In this document: in pieces, positions 1-31,133 of the stretch
How positions within the stretch are numbered: the first letter of the stretch is position 1
How the letters are laid out: every line of letters begins with the position of its first letter
Sequence record: ON210139.1
Strand: one strand, 5' to 3'
From: Escherichia phage EC128
DNA length: 64,000 bases
Translations under genes and position numbers: made by a program
Notes under the pieces: model-generated
Database searches by the model: none
Told to the model about the DNA's origin: nothing
The model's input: the letters and a program-made list of their open reading frames with translations, nothing else

Positions 1-593
1 TGATATTCAACGGCATCGAGTATTTGAAGAACTTACAGAGAAGTCCTTATCATTTTTCTGGCGTCCCGAAGAAGTAAACTTAATGATGGATGCTGCACAG
101 TTTAATAAGCTTCCTCAGTATCAGCAGAATATTTTTACTAACAACCTGAAGTATCAATCACTTTTGGATAGCATTCAGGGTCGTGCACCGTCTGCTGTAC
201 TTATGTCATTAATTTCAGACCCAAGCCTTGATACATGGGTTGCTACATGGACTTTTAGTGAAACTATTCACTCTCGTTCGTATACTCATATTATGCGAAA
301 TCTTTATACCGATCCATCGAAGGTATTTGATGAAATTGTATTAGATGAAGCTATTATGAAACGAGCTGAATCCATTGGACGTTATTATGATGATGTCTTG
401 GTTAAAACCCGTGAATGGGAAAATGCTAAAGAATTTGTAGAACTAGCTAAAGAATCTCCTGATGCCGACTTTCGTTTAAACCGAGCTATTAAACAAGAAG
501 CCGAAGCTAAACGTGCTTTAATGAAGTCTCTTTACCTCTGTTTACACGTTATTAATGCCTTAGAAGCTATTCGTTTTTATGTATCTTTTGCGT
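1..593 (+). CDS. nrdB: ribonucleotide reductase small subunit NrdB, exon 1 (5' partial; codons in frame 2,5,8...)
   Basis: Translation matches class Ia NrdB (..LKYQSLLDSIQGRAP..AIRFYVSFA); the TAA at 593-595 is intron sequence; last exon base U593 precedes a P1-like pairing. Confidence 0.9.
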
Positions 594-703
594 AAAATGC
601 GCCTTTAAACGGTAACGTTTATCGAAAACTCCTTTAATTGCTGGAAAGTCCTTTATAGGAAAACTAGCAGCCAAGGTTTTGCTTGCACCTTTAATTAGTA
701 TAA

Positions 704-711
704 TATAAATA
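704..711 (+). promoter_or_regulatory. candidate late promoter (TATAAATA) inside intron, upstream of endonuclease ORF
   Basis: Exact TATAAATA 28 nt upstream of the ORF start; a MotA-box-like TTGCTTGCA at 676-684 and TATAAT at 699-704 lie just upstream. Confidence 0.45.
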
Positions 712-738
712 TGATTATACTTTTAAGAGGATGCACAA

Positions 739-1548
739 TTGAACTATAGAAAAATTTGGATAGATGCTAACGGACCTATACCTAAAGATTCTGATGGAAG
801 AACATACGAAATCCATCATAAAGACGGTAACCGTGAAAATAATGATTTAGATAATTTGATGTGCCTTTCTATACAGGAACATTATGATATACATTTAGCT
901 CAAAAAGATTACCAGGCTTGTCATGCTATAAAGCTTAGAATGAAATATTCTCCTAAAGAAATTTCTGAATTAGCTTCTAAAGCCGCAAAATCTAGAGAAA
1001 TCCAGATTTTTAATATCCCTGAAGTACGAGCTAAAAATATTGCCTCTATTAAATCTAAGATAGAAAATGGTACATTTCATCTTTTAGACGGTGAAATACA
1101 GCGTAAATCTAATTTAAATAGAGTTGCATTAGGTATACATAATTTTCAACAAGCTGAGCATATTGCAAAAGTTAAAGAACGCAATATTGCAGCTATAAAA
1201 GAAGGTACTCATGTATTTTGCGGTGGTAAAATGCAGTCAGAAACTCAATCAAAACGGGTAAATGACGGTTCACATCATTTCTTGTCAGAAGATCATAAGA
1301 AAAGAACATCAGCAAAAACATTAGAAATGGTTAAGAACGGGACCCATCCTGCACAAAAAGAAATCACATGTGATTTCTGCGGTCACATTGGTAAAGGTCC
1401 TGGATTTTATCTAAAACATAATGACAGATGTAAATTAAATCCAAATAGAATTCAATTGAATTGTCCATATTGTGATAAGAAAGATTTATCACCATCAACA
1501 TATAAACGATGGCACGGCGACAATTGCAAAGCAAGGTTCAACGACTAG
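739..1548 (+). CDS. intron-encoded HNH homing endonuclease with C-terminal Cys-rich zinc-finger region (I-TevIII-like, full length 269 aa)
   Basis: HNH motif EIHHKDGNRENNDLDNLMCLSIQEHYDIH; C-terminal CDFCGH..CPYCDK..HGDNCK; only start codon upstream of the motif is TTG739 with SD AAGAGG at 725-730. Confidence 0.85.
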   Translation: MNYRKIWIDANGPIPKDSDGRTYEIHHKDGNRENNDLDNLMCLSIQEHYDIHLAQKDYQACHAIKLRMKYSPKEISELASKAAKSREIQIFNIPEVRAKNIASIKSKIENGTFHLLDGEIQRKSNLNRVALGIHNFQQAEHIAKVKERNIAAIKEGTHVFCGGKMQSETQSKRVNDGSHHFLSEDHKKRTSAKTLEMVKNGTHPAQKEITCDFCGHIGKGPGFYLKHNDRCKLNPNRIQLNCPYCDKKDLSPSTYKRWHGDNCKARFND

Positions 1549-12696: not shown

Positions 12697-13532
12697 AGCC
12701 TACTATTTTAACTGATATTGATGGAGTGTGTTTAAGCTGGCAATCAGGCCTTCCTTATTTTGCTCAGAAATATAATCTTCCGTTGGAACATATTTTAAAA
12801 ATGATCCAAGATGAAAAATTTATTTCTCCTGGTAAACTTTTTAATTGTGATGAAGAACTTGGTGTCAAGTTAATTGAAAAATACAATCGTTCAGATTTTA
12901 TTCGTTACTTGTCTCCATATAAAGATGCTCTGTGTGTAATTAACAAATTAAAAGAAGATTATAATTTTGTAGCTGTTACAGCGCTGGGTGATTCTATTGA
13001 CGCTCTGCTGAATCGTCAATTTAATTTGAATGCTCTTTTTCCTGGTGCCTTCTCAGAAGTACTGATGTGTGGTCATGATTCTTCAAAAGAAGAGTTGTTC
13101 AAAAAGGCAAAAGAGAAATATAACGTAATTTGTTATATTGACGATCTCGCTCACCACTGCGATCACGCGAGTGAAATATTAAGTGTTCCTGTTTATTGGA
13201 TGGCTCGAGGGGAACGTGACAGTATTCCAAAAACTGCTCAGCGAGTTTATACATGGAACGATGTAGAGAATAAGCTTTTTTCACCAAAGGAAAATAAAGA
13301 AAGTTTTGATAGTGAAAAAGCTATAAAAGATGTAATTGAAAAGATGATTAAAAACGATTCTTTTCGTTGGAACACTACCTGGAGAACTCCTGGATTTAAT
13401 CCTTATAATCATCTATATCATCCATATCAGACACATCCGTTTCAGACATGGAACTATATTAAACCCGGCGGTATAGAGTATTTGTATAATAGACCTACTT
13501 GTGGTGATAATATTTTCCAAGGAGCATTCTAA
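12693..13532 (+). CDS. HAD-superfamily phosphatase/nucleotidase-like protein, 279 aa
   Basis: HAD motif I ILTDIDGV near N-terminus and a DD motif (ICYIDDLAHH); ATGA overlap with upstream ORF. Confidence 0.65.
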   Translation: MKPTILTDIDGVCLSWQSGLPYFAQKYNLPLEHILKMIQDEKFISPGKLFNCDEELGVKLIEKYNRSDFIRYLSPYKDALCVINKLKEDYNFVAVTALGDSIDALLNRQFNLNALFPGAFSEVLMCGHDSSKEELFKKAKEKYNVICYIDDLAHHCDHASEILSVPVYWMARGERDSIPKTAQRVYTWNDVENKLFSPKENKESFDSEKAIKDVIEKMIKNDSFRWNTTWRTPGFNPYNHLYHPYQTHPFQTWNYIKPGGIEYLYNRPTCGDNIFQGAF

Positions 13533-13801
13533 TGTTTGTTGTTCACACTATTTATGAAAATGAAGGTAATACTACACGTGATTACGGTCACGTAAATCAA
13601 TTTTTTAGATGCAATCCAGAATTCCGAGCTCAAAAAGACGAACGAATTTTTAAAAAATGCGTAGAGCAAGGTTTCATTTATATCAAGCACTGGATGCAAG
13701 GAAATAAAGTTAGAACCACATATCATAAGTCTTTGACTGAGCTTAATGATGAATTGATTTATAATAGAGCTGTAAACCAAACTCTGAAGGATGAACAATG
13801 A
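13532..13801 (+). CDS. hypothetical protein, 89 aa
   Basis: TAATG overlap with upstream ORF; SD AAGGAG. Confidence 0.6.
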   Translation: MFVVHTIYENEGNTTRDYGHVNQFFRCNPEFRAQKDERIFKKCVEQGFIYIKHWMQGNKVRTTYHKSLTELNDELIYNRAVNQTLKDEQ

Positions 13802-15261
13802 TTCTTAAAATTCTGAACGAAATAGCATCTATTGGTTCAACTAAGCAGAAGCAAGCAATTCTTGAAAAGAATAAAGATAATGAATTGCTTAAACGAGTAT
13901 ATCGTCTGACTTATTCTCGTGGGCTGCAGTATTATATCAAGAAATGGCCTAAACCTGGTATTGCTACCCAGAGTTTTGGAATGTTGACTCTTACCGATAT
14001 GCTTGACTTCATTGAATTCACATTAGCTACTCGGAAATTGACTGGAAATGCAGCAATTGAGGAATTAACTGGATATATCACCGATGGTAAAAAAGATGAT
14101 GTTGAAGTTTTGCGTCGAGTGATGATGCGAGACCTTGAATGTGGTGCTTCAGTATCTATTGCAAACAAAGTTTGGCCAGGTTTAATTCCTGAACAACCTC
14201 AAATGCTGGCAAGTTCTTATGATGAAAAAGGCATTAATAAGAATATCAAATTTCCAGCCTTTGCCCAGTTAAAAGCTGATGGGGCTCGGTGCTTTGCCGA
14301 AGTCAGAGGTGATGAATTAGATGATGTTCGTCTTTTATCACGAGCCGGTAATGAATATCTAGGATTAGATCTTCTTAAGGAAGAATTAATCAAAATGACC
14401 GCTGAAGCCCGCCAGATTCATCCAGAAGGCGTGTTAATTGATGGCGAATTGGTATACCATGAGCAAGTTAAAAAGGAGCCAGAAGGCCTAGATTTTCTTT
14501 TTGATGCTTATCCTGAAAACAGTAAAGCCAAAGAATTCGCCGAAGTAGCTGAATCACGTACTACTTCTAATGGAATCGCTAATAAATCTTTAAAGGGAAC
14601 CATTTCTGAAAAAGAAGCTCAATGCATGAAGTTTCAGGTCTGGGATTATGTTCCATTGGTAGAAATATACGGTCTTCCTGCATTTCGTTTGAAATATGAT
14701 GTACGTTTTTCTAAACTAGAACAAATGACATCAGGCTATGATAAAGTAATTTTAATTGAAAACCAGGTAGTAAATAACCTAGATGAAGCTAAGGTAATTT
14801 ATAAAAAGTATATTGACCAAGGTCTTGAAGGTATTATTCTCAAAAATATCGATGGATTATGGGAAAATGCTCGTTCAAAAAATCTCTATAAATTTAAAGA
14901 AGTAATTGATGTTGATTTAAAAATTGTAGGAATTTATCCTCACCGTAAAGACCCTACTAAAGCGGGTGGATTTATTCTTGAGTCAGAGTGTGGAAAAATT
15001 AAGGTAAATGCTGGTTCAGGCTTAAAAGATAAAGCCGGTGTAAAATCACATGAACTTGACCGTACTCGCATTATGGAAAACCAAAATTATTATATTGGAA
15101 AAATTCTAGAGTGCGAATGCAACGGTTGGTTAAAATCTGATGGCCGCACTGATTACGTTAAATTATTTCTTCCGATTGCGATTCGTTTACGTGAAGATAA
15201 AACTAAAGCTAATACATTCGAGGATGTATTTGGTGATTTTCATGAGGTAACTGGTCTATGA
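13798..15261 (+). CDS. 30: ATP-dependent DNA ligase, 487 aa
   Basis: MILKILNEIASIGSTKQKQAILEKNK.. and adenylation motif KADGAR; matches T4 DNA ligase. Confidence 0.97.
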   Translation: MILKILNEIASIGSTKQKQAILEKNKDNELLKRVYRLTYSRGLQYYIKKWPKPGIATQSFGMLTLTDMLDFIEFTLATRKLTGNAAIEELTGYITDGKKDDVEVLRRVMMRDLECGASVSIANKVWPGLIPEQPQMLASSYDEKGINKNIKFPAFAQLKADGARCFAEVRGDELDDVRLLSRAGNEYLGLDLLKEELIKMTAEARQIHPEGVLIDGELVYHEQVKKEPEGLDFLFDAYPENSKAKEFAEVAESRTTSNGIANKSLKGTISEKEAQCMKFQVWDYVPLVEIYGLPAFRLKYDVRFSKLEQMTSGYDKVILIENQVVNNLDEAKVIYKKYIDQGLEGIILKNIDGLWENARSKNLYKFKEVIDVDLKIVGIYPHRKDPTKAGGFILESECGKIKVNAGSGLKDKAGVKSHELDRTRIMENQNYYIGKILECECNGWLKSDGRTDYVKLFLPIAIRLREDKTKANTFEDVFGDFHEVTGL

Positions 15262-19254: not shown

Positions 19255-20348
19255 TAAAAAGTCCCCGCATATAAAGAAGCACGGTTTAACGTGATAATTT
19301 CTCTCATAGTAATCTCAAGAGTAAATGTACTAGGGAGGTTTGGAGCAATAGCTAATCCGTTAAAGTTACCATTAGGTGTTTTATCAAATCTGATGCTTTG
19401 TATTTGGCATGGGCCAAATATTTCCGTTTTTCCATCAAACTTAGATGTTGCACCAAAGTTTTTCACCATCCAAATTGTCGGGTTTGAAACTACTAGAACG
19501 TTAGTTAAACTCGATGTCATTTTCTCAAATAGTGTTTTATTTTTAGCTGCGTCTTCCGGAGATAAAGGTTCAATTAACGTAGAACGATACCAATCATCTA
19601 AATACCCCTTTATTTCAGCAGCATATTGAGATTTACCAGTTTCACCATAAGAAAAATAGTTAAAATATTGATAGATATTAATAATAGCCATTAAATCTTC
19701 TGTTGAACGTGGAGTCAAATCCCAAGTAAACACTTTAGTTCTATTTTCAGCACCACCATACATACTTCGAGCCGTAGTGTATATTTGTTCATTATTATCA
19801 GCCATTATACCTTGTGTTATACTTTCCAGTGCTCCAAATACTGCAGTTGAAGCAATATTACTTAGCACACCAGTAGCAGTACCTCCGCCTCTGCTGATAA
19901 GACTTTCTTGAACATCATTAAATCTATGTGATGATGTATCAACATCGGATTTAGATCTTGGTAAAAGAATATTTGCAACAGGGGCTTTACTTATTGTTCC
20001 TGAATTATTATCTGATATTAATCCATTTGACAGTTTTGATACTGTATTACTGATAGTGTTTCTGGCTGTACGTAAAATACTCGAAGATGAAGAAGAGTAG
20101 TTAGATCTCATCGATCTAAGACTTCCAGAATCCCTAGATGACATATTGTATGCAGTAAATAATAATCCATTCTTATATAGATCTGTTACCTGGAAGTCCC
20201 CTGTAGTGTCATTACCACTAGCACGCCCAGTTGGAAACTGGGCAGTGTATGTTTTAGTTACTACTTCTGATTTAGTGCTCTGTCCGGCTGAAATTTTCTC
20301 ACCGGACTTTTTAATTAAATCAGTAGTTATTTCTTTAACAATTGCCAT
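19254..20348 (-). CDS. 48: baseplate tail-tube cap gp48, 364 aa
   Basis: Length and position as T4 gp48; stop overlaps gene 54 start. Confidence 0.88.
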   Translation of the reverse strand: MAIVKEITTDLIKKSGEKISAGQSTKSEVVTKTYTAQFPTGRASGNDTTGDFQVTDLYKNGLLFTAYNMSSRDSGSLRSMRSNYSSSSSSILRTARNTISNTVSKLSNGLISDNNSGTISKAPVANILLPRSKSDVDTSSHRFNDVQESLISRGGGTATGVLSNIASTAVFGALESITQGIMADNNEQIYTTARSMYGGAENRTKVFTWDLTPRSTEDLMAIINIYQYFNYFSYGETGKSQYAAEIKGYLDDWYRSTLIEPLSPEDAAKNKTLFEKMTSSLTNVLVVSNPTIWMVKNFGATSKFDGKTEIFGPCQIQSIRFDKTPNGNFNGLAIAPNLPSTFTLEITMREIITLNRASLYAGTF

Positions 20349-28971: not shown

Positions 28972-28979
28972 TATTTATA
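28972..28979 (-). promoter_or_regulatory. candidate late promoter for the GIY-YIG endonuclease gene
   Basis: Plus-strand TATTTATA, i.e. TATAAATA on minus strand, about 29 nt upstream of the endonuclease ATG. Confidence 0.5.
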
Positions 28980-28992
28980 CTGAGGAAATATT

Positions 28993-29673
28993 ATGATAGA
29001 TAAAGATTATATTGCAGAGCTGAAGGCTCTTGATGATAACAAAGAAGCTAAAGCTAAATTAGCTGAATATGCTGAACAGTTTGGTATAAAGGTCAAAAAG
29101 AATAAATCTTTTGATAATATCGTTGTTGATATTGAAGAAGCCCTCCAGAAGCTCGCTAGTGAACCTATGCCAGAGACTGATGGGTTATCTATTAAAGACC
29201 TAATTGATGCTGCTGATGCCGCAGAGGGATTAAAATATGACGATGAAGAAGTCAATCCAGAAGCAGCACTTCTGATTGATTCTCCGGTTAAATCTGACAT
29301 TAAAATTGAAGTAGTAGAAACGGATAAAATTCCTGAAAATACCTCAGTTTTGATTGAAGATACTCCTTTTGTTGAAGAAAAATTCGAACAGGCTGTAGCT
29401 GAGATTGTTGAATCTGAAAAGCCGTCTGTATTTACTCTTCCGGAAAACTTTAGTCCGAATCTTCAGCTGATTGGAAAAAATCCAGGATTCTGTACTGTTC
29501 CTTGGTGGATTTATCAATGGATTGCTGAAACTCCGGATTGGAAATCTCACCCAACTAGTTTTGAACATGCGTCAGCACACCAAACTTTATTTAGCTTAAT
29601 TTATTACATTAACCGTGACGGATCAGTTTTAATTCGTGAAACACGCAATTCTTCTTTCGTAACATTAAAATAA
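28993..29673 (+). CDS. inh: Inh, inhibitor of prohead protease, 226 aa
   Basis: Length and position (adjacent to hoc) as in T4; SD GAGGA. Confidence 0.8.
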   Translation: MIDKDYIAELKALDDNKEAKAKLAEYAEQFGIKVKKNKSFDNIVVDIEEALQKLASEPMPETDGLSIKDLIDAADAAEGLKYDDEEVNPEAALLIDSPVKSDIKIEVVETDKIPENTSVLIEDTPFVEEKFEQAVAEIVESEKPSVFTLPENFSPNLQLIGKNPGFCTVPWWIYQWIAETPDWKSHPTSFEHASAHQTLFSLIYYINRDGSVLIRETRNSSFVTLK

Positions 29674-29682
29674 GGATAACTT

Positions 29683-31101
29683 ATGACTTTTACAGTTGAT
29701 ATAACTCCTAAAACACCTACTGGAGTTATAGATCAGACTCAGCAGTTTACTGCTACACCCAGTGGTCAAACTGGAGATGGACCTATTACATATGCTTGGA
29801 CTGTAGATGATGTTCCACAAGATGGAGCTGAAGCAACTTTTAGTTATGTATTAAAAGGACCTGCCGGTCAAAAGACTATTAAAGTAGTTGCAACAAATAC
29901 AGTTCCAGAAGCTGAAGCTGAAACAGCAGAAGCTACTACAACTATCACAGTTCAAAATAAGACACAAACGACCACCTTAGCTGTAACTCCTAATAGCCCT
30001 GACGCTGGAGTAATCGGAACAGCTATTGAATTTACTGCCGCTTTAGCTTCGCAGCCACCAGGTGCATCTGCTACGTATCAATGGCACGTTGACGGTTCTC
30101 CTGTGGGCGAAGCAACTTCTGCTACATTCAATTACACTCCTACCACAAGCGGAGTTAAAACAATTAAGTGTGTGGCTCAAGTAACCGCGACAGATTATGA
30201 TGCAAAAGAAGTTACTTCTAATGAAGTGTCACTGACTGTTAATAAAAAGACACAGACAACTACCTTGGCAGTAACTCCCGATAGTCCTTCAGCTGGAGTA
30301 ATCGGAACAGCTGTTGAATTTACCGCTACTTTAGTTTCTCAACCTGATGGAGCATCTGCTACGTATCAGTGGTATGTAGATGATTCACAAGTTGGTGGAG
30401 AAACTAACTCTACATTTAGCTATACTCCAACTACAAGTGGAGTAAAAAGAATTAAATGCGTAGCCCAAGTAACTGCAGAAAATTACAATGAAAAGGAAGT
30501 TACTTCTAATGAAGTATCATTAACGGTTAATAAGAAGACAATGAATCCACAGGTTACATTGACTCCTCCTTCTATTAACGTTCAGCAAGATGCTTCGGCT
30601 ACATTCACGGCTAATGTTACTGATGCTCCAGAAGAAGCGCAAATTGCGTATTCATGGAAGAAAGATTCTTCTCCAGTAGAAGGGTCAACTAATGTATACA
30701 CTGTTGATACATCATCTATTGGAAGTCAAACTATTGAAGTTACTGCAACTGTTACTGCTACTGATTATGATAGCAAAACTATCACAGCAGAAGGTCAAGT
30801 TCAGGTAACTGATAAAGTTGCTCCAGAACCAGAAGGTGAATTACCTTATGTTCATCCTCTTCCACATCGCACTTCAGCTTATATCTGGTGCGGTTGGTGG
30901 GTTATGGATGAAATCCAAAAAATGACTGAAGAAGGTAAAGACTGGAAAACTGACGACCCAGATAGTAAGTACTACTTGCATCGTTACACTCTTCAGAAGA
31001 TGATGAAAGACTATCCAGAAGTTGATGTTCAAGAATCGCGTAATGGATACATCATTCATAAAACTGCTTTAGAAACTGGTATTATCTATACCTATCCATA
31101 A
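29683..31101 (+). CDS. hoc: Hoc outer capsid decoration protein with four tandem Ig-like domains, 472 aa
   Basis: Repeated Ig-like modules (KTQTTTLAVTP...VSLTVNKK twice); about 96 aa longer than the 376 aa I recall for T4 Hoc. Confidence 0.88.
   Translation: MTFTVDITPKTPTGVIDQTQQFTATPSGQTGDGPITYAWTVDDVPQDGAEATFSYVLKGPAGQKTIKVVATNTVPEAEAETAEATTTITVQNKTQTTTLAVTPNSPDAGVIGTAIEFTAALASQPPGASATYQWHVDGSPVGEATSATFNYTPTTSGVKTIKCVAQVTATDYDAKEVTSNEVSLTVNKKTQTTTLAVTPDSPSAGVIGTAVEFTATLVSQPDGASATYQWYVDDSQVGGETNSTFSYTPTTSGVKRIKCVAQVTAENYNEKEVTSNEVSLTVNKKTMNPQVTLTPPSINVQQDASATFTANVTDAPEEAQIAYSWKKDSSPVEGSTNVYTVDTSSIGSQTIEVTATVTATDYDSKTITAEGQVQVTDKVAPEPEGELPYVHPLPHRTSAYIWCGWWVMDEIQKMTEEGKDWKTDDPDSKYYLHRYTLQKMMKDYPEVDVQESRNGYIIHKTALETGIIYTYP
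29959..30534 (+). repeat. tandem direct repeat, 2 x 288 bp, encoding two near-identical Ig-like domains inside hoc
   Basis: Residues 93-188 and 189-284 of Hoc align without gaps with many identical positions; nucleotide copies are diverged. Confidence 0.8.
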
Positions 31102-31106
31102 TCATA

Positions 31107-31133
31107 AGGGGCTTCGGCCCCCTTTCTTCATTT
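31107..31133 (+). terminator. rho-independent terminator after hoc
   Basis: Stem GGGGC-TTCG-GCCCC followed by CTTTCTTCATTTT. Confidence 0.8.

Follow-up and report, generated by a model that had tools for sequence, protein, structure and literature searches.

The hoc gene of Escherichia phage EC128 encodes a head decoration protein with four Ig-like domains, two of which are adjacent, diverged units of the domain that corresponds to the second domain (D2) of T4 Hoc. We refer to the two units as A and B. This four-Ig Hoc is a known and widespread allele; it is not peculiar to EC128, and it was inherited rather than invented. The explanation that best joins our results, and in which we have considerable confidence, is that EC128 inherited an old A-B allele of hoc, that the number of D2 units in this gene is changed by recombination, and that the longer allele would make a longer fibre. 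The analysis covered a 64,000-nt stretch of the EC128 sequence (record ON210139.1), called the window below, and all positions are those of the window unless stated otherwise.

The window is part of an ordinary Tequatrovirus genome, because positions 20000 to 44000 were 97.5% identical, over the full 24 kb, to Serratia phage PhiZZ30, Escherichia phage VEc74, and RB3. As in T4 (NC_000866), the genes run in the order uvsW, segE, inh, hoc, 24.3, 24.2, rnlB, and hoc has the same placement, between inh and 24.3/24.2/rnlB, at the loci of the relatives examined. A phmmer search matched the window protein to T4 Hoc chains (5vf3_Z and others) with an E value of 3e-225. Pfam matches to PKD, PKD_3, Ig_3, and BiPBP_C indicated an N-terminal string of Ig-like domains. 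Residues 1–125 aligned to T4 residues 1–125, and residues 189–472 aligned to T4 residues 93–376 with a score of 561 bits, an alignment that includes the capsid-binding domain. The final 90 residues were almost identical to those of T4 Hoc, and other Hoc alleles have 89–92 of the 92 residues of the capsid-binding domain in common with the window. Hoc is a non-essential fibre that binds as a monomer at the centre of the gp23 hexamers on the expanded capsid of T4-like phages, and Hoc proteins in general are reported to be acidic (PMC10385173); the window Hoc has a pI of 4.46. From the near-identity of its binding domain to that of T4, we infer that the window Hoc would also bind at hexamer centres. 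The features of the gene and its flanks are as follows.

29672 to 29676, + strand: putative Shine-Dalgarno-like AAGGA, read from the sequence, 6 nt before the hoc ATG and overlapping the inh stop codon
29683 to 31101, + strand: hoc coding sequence (highly immunogenic outer capsid or head decoration protein), an open reading frame of 1419 nt encoding 472 aa plus stop
29683 to 29958, + strand: Ig-like domain 1 (D1, residues 1–92), aligning to T4 Hoc 1–92; beta strands predicted by AlphaFold2, pLDDT about 85–93
29959 to 30246, + strand: D2 unit A (residues 93–188), extra relative to T4; A-type at 17 of 17 fixed diagnostic nucleotide sites, pLDDT about 90–95
30004 to 30024, + strand, with partner 30292 to 30312: longest run identical in both units, 21 nt, GCTGGAGTAATCGGAACAGCT; candidate crossover site
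30208 to 30227, + strand, with partner 30496 to 30515: second-longest identical run, 20 nt, GAAGTTACTTCTAATGAAGT; putative crossover site in three-Ig alleles
30247 to 30534, + strand: D2 unit B (residues 189–284), counterpart of T4 domain 2; PKD/Ig Pfam matches at residues 195–267
30535 to 30822, + strand: Ig-like domain 3 (D3, residues 285–380), aligning to T4 189–284; Ig_3 and I-set matches at residues 289–373, pLDDT about 90
30823 to 31098, + strand: linker and C-terminal capsid-binding domain (residues 381–472), almost identical to T4 Hoc 285–376
31108 to 31121, + strand: terminator-like hairpin GGGGCTTCGGCCCC, G+C-rich and followed by a T-rich run, 7 nt past the hoc stop codon, found by a consensus scan

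The repeat search reported a single repeat, a 288-nt direct repeat in hoc, whose copies at 29947–30234 and 30235–30522 were 76% identical without gaps. Tandem Repeats Finder placed it at 29959–30540, with a period of 288, 2.0 copies, 78% matches, and a score of 705. When units A and B were compared without gaps, 77 of 96 amino acids and 221 of 288 nucleotides were identical, and 53 of the 96 third codon positions matched. The same comparison made on shuffled versions of the gene (n = 2000) gave 75 ± 7 identical bases and never more than 102 (z about 20). Adjoining Ig domains at the 288-nt offset (D1 versus A, and B versus D3) were only about 35% identical, demonstrating that the repeat is specific to units A and B. 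T4 Hoc contains 376 aa, and the window Hoc is exactly 96 aa longer. A preliminary description made from the sequence had proposed just such an internal 288-bp repeat, consisting of two adjacent Ig-like domains that align without gaps at residues 93–188 and 189–284, and had taken T4 Hoc to be about 96 aa shorter than the 472 aa found here; these points were all borne out. Because tandem repeats can in principle be mis-assembled, we considered an assembly or sequencing artefact that repeated a segment of hoc, and found its probability to be negligible: with 67 differences in 288 positions, the copies are neither a collapsed nor a duplicated read, the reading frame is intact with a dN/dS of 0.10, and the gene recurs across hundreds of independent genomes as well as in a separate single-gene deposit of RB30 hoc.

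The AlphaFold2 model, which was built on a shallow alignment of 42 homologues, predicted four beta-sandwich domains with pLDDT of about 90 across residues 1–380. The best PDB matches found by Foldseek were four-Ig fragments (Dscam1 and ICAM-5 D1–D4), and RB49 Hoc (3shs) was also matched. The C-terminal domain was modelled poorly (pLDDT below 60), which we attribute to the shallow alignment; its identity therefore rests on the sequence match to the T4 capsid-binding domain, which has been solved on the capsid (PDB 8t1x and 8t9r; PMC10385173). Taken together, the model and the sequence matches support a predicted architecture of four Ig-like domains plus a T4-type capsid anchor (D1-A-B-D3-capsid-binding), in agreement with the four Ig folds and C-terminal capsid-binding domain expected in the preliminary description.

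The closest nucleotide match of the window hoc was that of vB_EcoM_G2540 (MK327936.1), at 97.8% identity. The full 1419-nt gene was found at 94–97.8% identity in many phage records, with G2540 and about 200 other Tequatrovirus records having a full-length hoc that differs from that of the window by point differences only; these records annotate it as a PKD domain protein, Hoc-like head decoration, or large head outer capsid protein. Counting four-Ig records by megablast coverage of at least 80% proved to be invalid, since three-Ig records can reach 100% coverage when their single unit aligns to both copies. Because coverage was misleading, the span of the match within the record was used instead, for 60 records sampled at regular intervals down the ranking of the 680 that matched. 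A span of 1419–1425 nt (four Ig) was found in 19 of the 60 and a span of about 1131 nt (three Ig) in 31; the remaining 10 had other or partial spans that do not represent a full-length Tequatrovirus hoc. The four-Ig form is thus present in about one-third of the sampled Tequatrovirus records. At the protein level, the best 120 clusters included 77 with 376 aa and one D2 unit, 29 with 472 aa and two D2 units, and 8 with 568–570 aa and three D2 units, so that the comparison of Hoc domain counts across T4-like phages called for earlier yielded alleles with one, two, and three D2 units. In AR1 and REP3, hoc extends over 1425 nt, about two codons more. In MZ501066.1 (FriedrichMiescher) hoc is annotated in two parts at 13295–14714; the split annotation and the span of 1420 nt suggest a four-Ig allele with a frameshift.

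An allele of this kind has been on record for a long time. RB30 Hoc (AY101183.1, AAM52483.1) resembles the window Hoc in having 472 aa, 1419 nt with 91.3% nucleotide identity, and the order D1-A-B-D3-D4, and its record carries a repeat_region at 367..944 annotated as an intragenic repeat leading to an additional immunoglobulin-like domain. Every diagnostic site types its units as A and B, as in the window, and RB30 Hoc differs from the window in ordinary allelic ways only: the dS between the A units is 0.28, and the unit heads and tails have been shuffled in another way. With its 288-nt intragenic tandem repeat, 472 aa, and A before B, the window gene is an allele of the RB30 type. T4 Hoc (NP_049793.1; PDB 5vf3, 8t1x, and 8t9r) is encoded at the same locus, and its D1, D3, and capsid-binding domains are 86–95% identical in nucleotide sequence to those of the window; however, it lacks unit A and has three Ig-like domains where the window Hoc has four. 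Hoc has been described as a conserved capsid-binding domain joined to a variable string of one to ten Ig-like domains (PMC10385173), so variation in Ig number has already been published as a general property of Hoc. In the literature searched, no explicit discussion of the 472-aa Tequatrovirus allele was found; with the RB30 annotation made long ago, and with the allele present in hundreds of T4-like phages, its identification in EC128 has little weight as a discovery.

The D2 units clustered by their position in the array, not by phage. Type A is the first unit of two- and three-unit alleles and has the central motif VDGSPV.EATSATFNY, and type B, with the central motif VDDSQVGGETNSTF, is the second unit and also the single unit of T4. 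In nucleotide-level comparisons, which covered about a dozen alleles, A units were 85–98% identical to each other and B units 85–92%, versus 74–82% between A and B units. T4 D2 was 89% identical to window unit B versus 78% to unit A. Between window units A and B, dN was 0.12 and dS was 1.17 (Nei-Gojobori), versus dS values of 0.05–0.39 for orthologous units and flanking domains; in depth, the split between A and B thus exceeds the spread among the sampled alleles several times over. With a dN/dS of about 0.1, both units evolve under purifying selection. These sequence comparisons indicate that A and B are old lineages, separately conserved in many Tequatrovirus phages.

That the copies had diverged and the duplication was not very recent had been noted at the outset, and a dS of about 1.17 agrees with this. 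A recent duplication limited to the lineage of EC128, producing a novel and longer Hoc, would account for T4 having a single D2 unit and for nothing else that we found; it is very improbable given that divergence and the occurrence of the A-B arrangement, with orthologous units, in RB30, L001, P0009, G2540, and about 200 other GenBank records.

Diagnostic sites were those at which four multi-unit alleles showed a fixed difference between A and B. There were 17 such nucleotide sites, located in the centre of the unit (unit nt 95–209, 115 nt) plus its last base; the heads and tails of units were shuffled among alleles and between the two types. At these sites the single units of T4 and L002 were pure B and those of L004 and P0085 were A. 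Sites chosen as informative from the window alone had made T4 D2 look like a chimera with an A head and a B tail. We rejected this because T4 is B-type at 17 of 17 fixed sites, and the mixed pattern at the ends of its unit is explained by polymorphism common to both unit types.

Single-unit alleles of both kinds exist: A-only 376-aa alleles include L004, P0085, and about ten other clusters, and B-only alleles include T4 and L002. In neighbour-joining trees of the non-repeat parts of hoc, copy number was scattered, requiring 27 parsimony changes among 114 alleles. The possibility that the 472-aa alleles form a clade on these parts was rejected because of these 27 changes of state, which also make the polarity of gain and loss unreadable from such trees. 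The scatter points to heavy recombination, repeated gain and loss of units, or both. The gene is so mosaic that trees of the 96-aa module are weak.

The junctions in single-unit alleles were located by comparison with the window. The hoc gene of P0085 (L024:1501-2631, Logan ERR7995563) is identical to that of the window across hoc nt 186–538, comprising the end of D1 and the body of unit A, and past nt 538 it tracks window unit B through its tail and then D3 for 70 nt. The A-to-B transition falls inside the 20-nt GAAGTTACTTCTAATGAAGT run. The single units of P0097 and P0094 have the same junction as P0085, being A-type before the run and B-type after it; the junctions in P0118 and L004 lie elsewhere. 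In L002 the single unit has a head like that of window unit A followed by a B body, with the switch at or next to the 21-nt run at 30004–30024. The 376-aa alleles at L024, L026, and L027 each have a single D2 unit made of a unit A body and a unit B tail joined within the 20-nt identical run, and they look like products of an exact 288-nt deletion in a four-Ig allele resembling that of the window. P0085 is most simply read as an A-B allele like that of the window that has lost a single 288-nt unit through unequal homologous recombination. The same pattern could also come from an A-only and a B-only allele that recombined in register.

These results modify one part of the preliminary description. 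It was correct that hoc contains a tandem pair of D2 units, but the direction that it assumed, from the T4 state by duplication, is not established because each unit type also occurs singly. Since A and B are found singly, and since there are three-Ig alleles that look like deletions, the divergence of the copies does not have to reflect the age of their tandem arrangement.

The number of units probably changes, by loss as well as by gain, through unequal homologous recombination, which would take place at the 21-nt and 20-nt identical runs near the unit ends, and the central 115 nt of each unit would keep its A or B identity. A 288-nt unit is apparently losable by recombination at identical runs of 20–21 nt. 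For the origin of the array, we lean slightly toward a single old tandem duplication within the gene, followed by divergence and by repeated loss of one unit. Alternatively, the four-Ig allele might have arisen by unequal recombination between co-infecting A-only and B-only phages whose D2 domains had already diverged, in which case the divergence of the copies would predate their tandem arrangement. We regard this second origin as rather unlikely. T4-type phages recombine heavily, hoc is strongly mosaic, and both of the 376-aa parents that it calls for exist; moreover, an identical 288-nt repeat would be unstable, whereas diverged units would be stable as soon as they were joined. Nevertheless, several A-only alleles have a B-type tail identical to that of a four-Ig allele, for which loss is the simpler explanation, and the deeper variant P0044 already has an A-type unit beside older D2-like units. 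The order A then B, found in 29 of the 30 two-unit alleles scored and in all of the sampled three-unit alleles, fits one origin under either model.

Other Hoc proteins differ from that of the window in the number and kind of their Ig-like domains. The five-Ig Hoc proteins of UGKSEcP1 and UGKSEcP2 (568–570 aa) have the framework of the window Hoc, with A and B as units 1 and 2. The UGKSEcP2 gene (OV876900.1, L025:1501-3213) and P0001-P0008 have three D2 units, the third combining A-type and B-type sites in a mosaic. The variant P0044, of 567 aa and with 24 member sequences, has D1 and then an A-type unit identical to window unit A at 86 of 96 residues. After this unit come two D2-like units of much greater age (50/96 and 41/96 identical), then a D3 that has diverged and a D4 that is conserved. 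Two IMG/VR sequences (L005:1501-2916 and L006:1501-2913) encode Hoc proteins of 472 and 471 aa that are about 49% identical to that of the window. Their fourth Ig-like domain comes from a tandem duplicate of D3, with 55 and 74 of 95 identical residues, respectively, and the sequences indicate that this D3 duplication is independent of the D2 repeat. A third IMG/VR Hoc (L011, 282 aa) has no D2. These three thus have D3 doubled or D2 absent, in contrast to the doubled D2 of the window. More widely, PNJ-9 Hoc has 2 Ig-like domains (PMC11853027), RB49 Hoc has 3, and that of Serratia phage Muldoon has 10. A search for orthologues of A and B in more distant relatives was uninformative because D2 is just about 30% identical there. 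The gains of D2 and D3 and the losses of D2 across these relatives show that expansion and contraction of the Ig string recurs in the Hoc family. A further and doubtful possibility is that the D2 region is a cassette array of variable copy number and that the three-Ig Hoc of T4 is a contracted state of an older gene with several units, not the ancestral one. If this were true, A, B, and the mosaic third unit would be kept apart in their central loops by selection, for example for different glycan or immune targets, and with unit ends kept alike by gene conversion, unequal recombination would allow co-infecting phages to gain, lose, or exchange modules.

The T4 Hoc fibre is 18 nm long and has four domains (PMC10385173). 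By proportion to this length, the extra module would lengthen the fibre by approximately one Ig domain, or about 4 nm. In PNJ-9 D2, residues S183, L184, and T185 were mapped as the site that binds MUC2, through MUC2 fucose (PMC11853027), and S-L-T is found in both window units, at residues 183–185 (30229–30237) and 279–281 (30517–30525). A second D2 would therefore add another surface bearing S-L-T, a possible second glycan-binding site. However, PNJ-6 D2 does not bind MUC2 despite its conserved S-L-T residues (PMC11150434; PMC11853027), so a second D2 need not add binding. We tentatively suggest, at somewhat less than even odds, that the window allele may provide both a longer fibre and a second D2-type S-L-T surface. 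From the literature, an effect of the extra module on adhesion to mucus or cells is plausible; as to membership among the mucus-adherence (BAM) adhesins, S-L-T in both units would be a sequence-level pointer. At residue 29 in D1, the window Hoc has the Q of T4 rather than the E reported to be critical in PNJ-6. T4 Hoc serves as a display and vaccine scaffold and as a model for mucus adherence, and about one-third of its close relatives have the longer Hoc with two D2 units; generalizations from the 376-aa T4 protein should allow for longer alleles in relatives.

The sequences flanking hoc were also scanned for expression signals. The T4 late-promoter consensus TATAAATA was absent from the + strand immediately ahead of inh and of hoc; one copy is present on the − strand at 28972–28979, between segE and inh, and the whole window has 20 occurrences versus 9.4 expected. 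Downstream of hoc, the hairpin GGGGCTTCGGCCCC looks like an intrinsic terminator.
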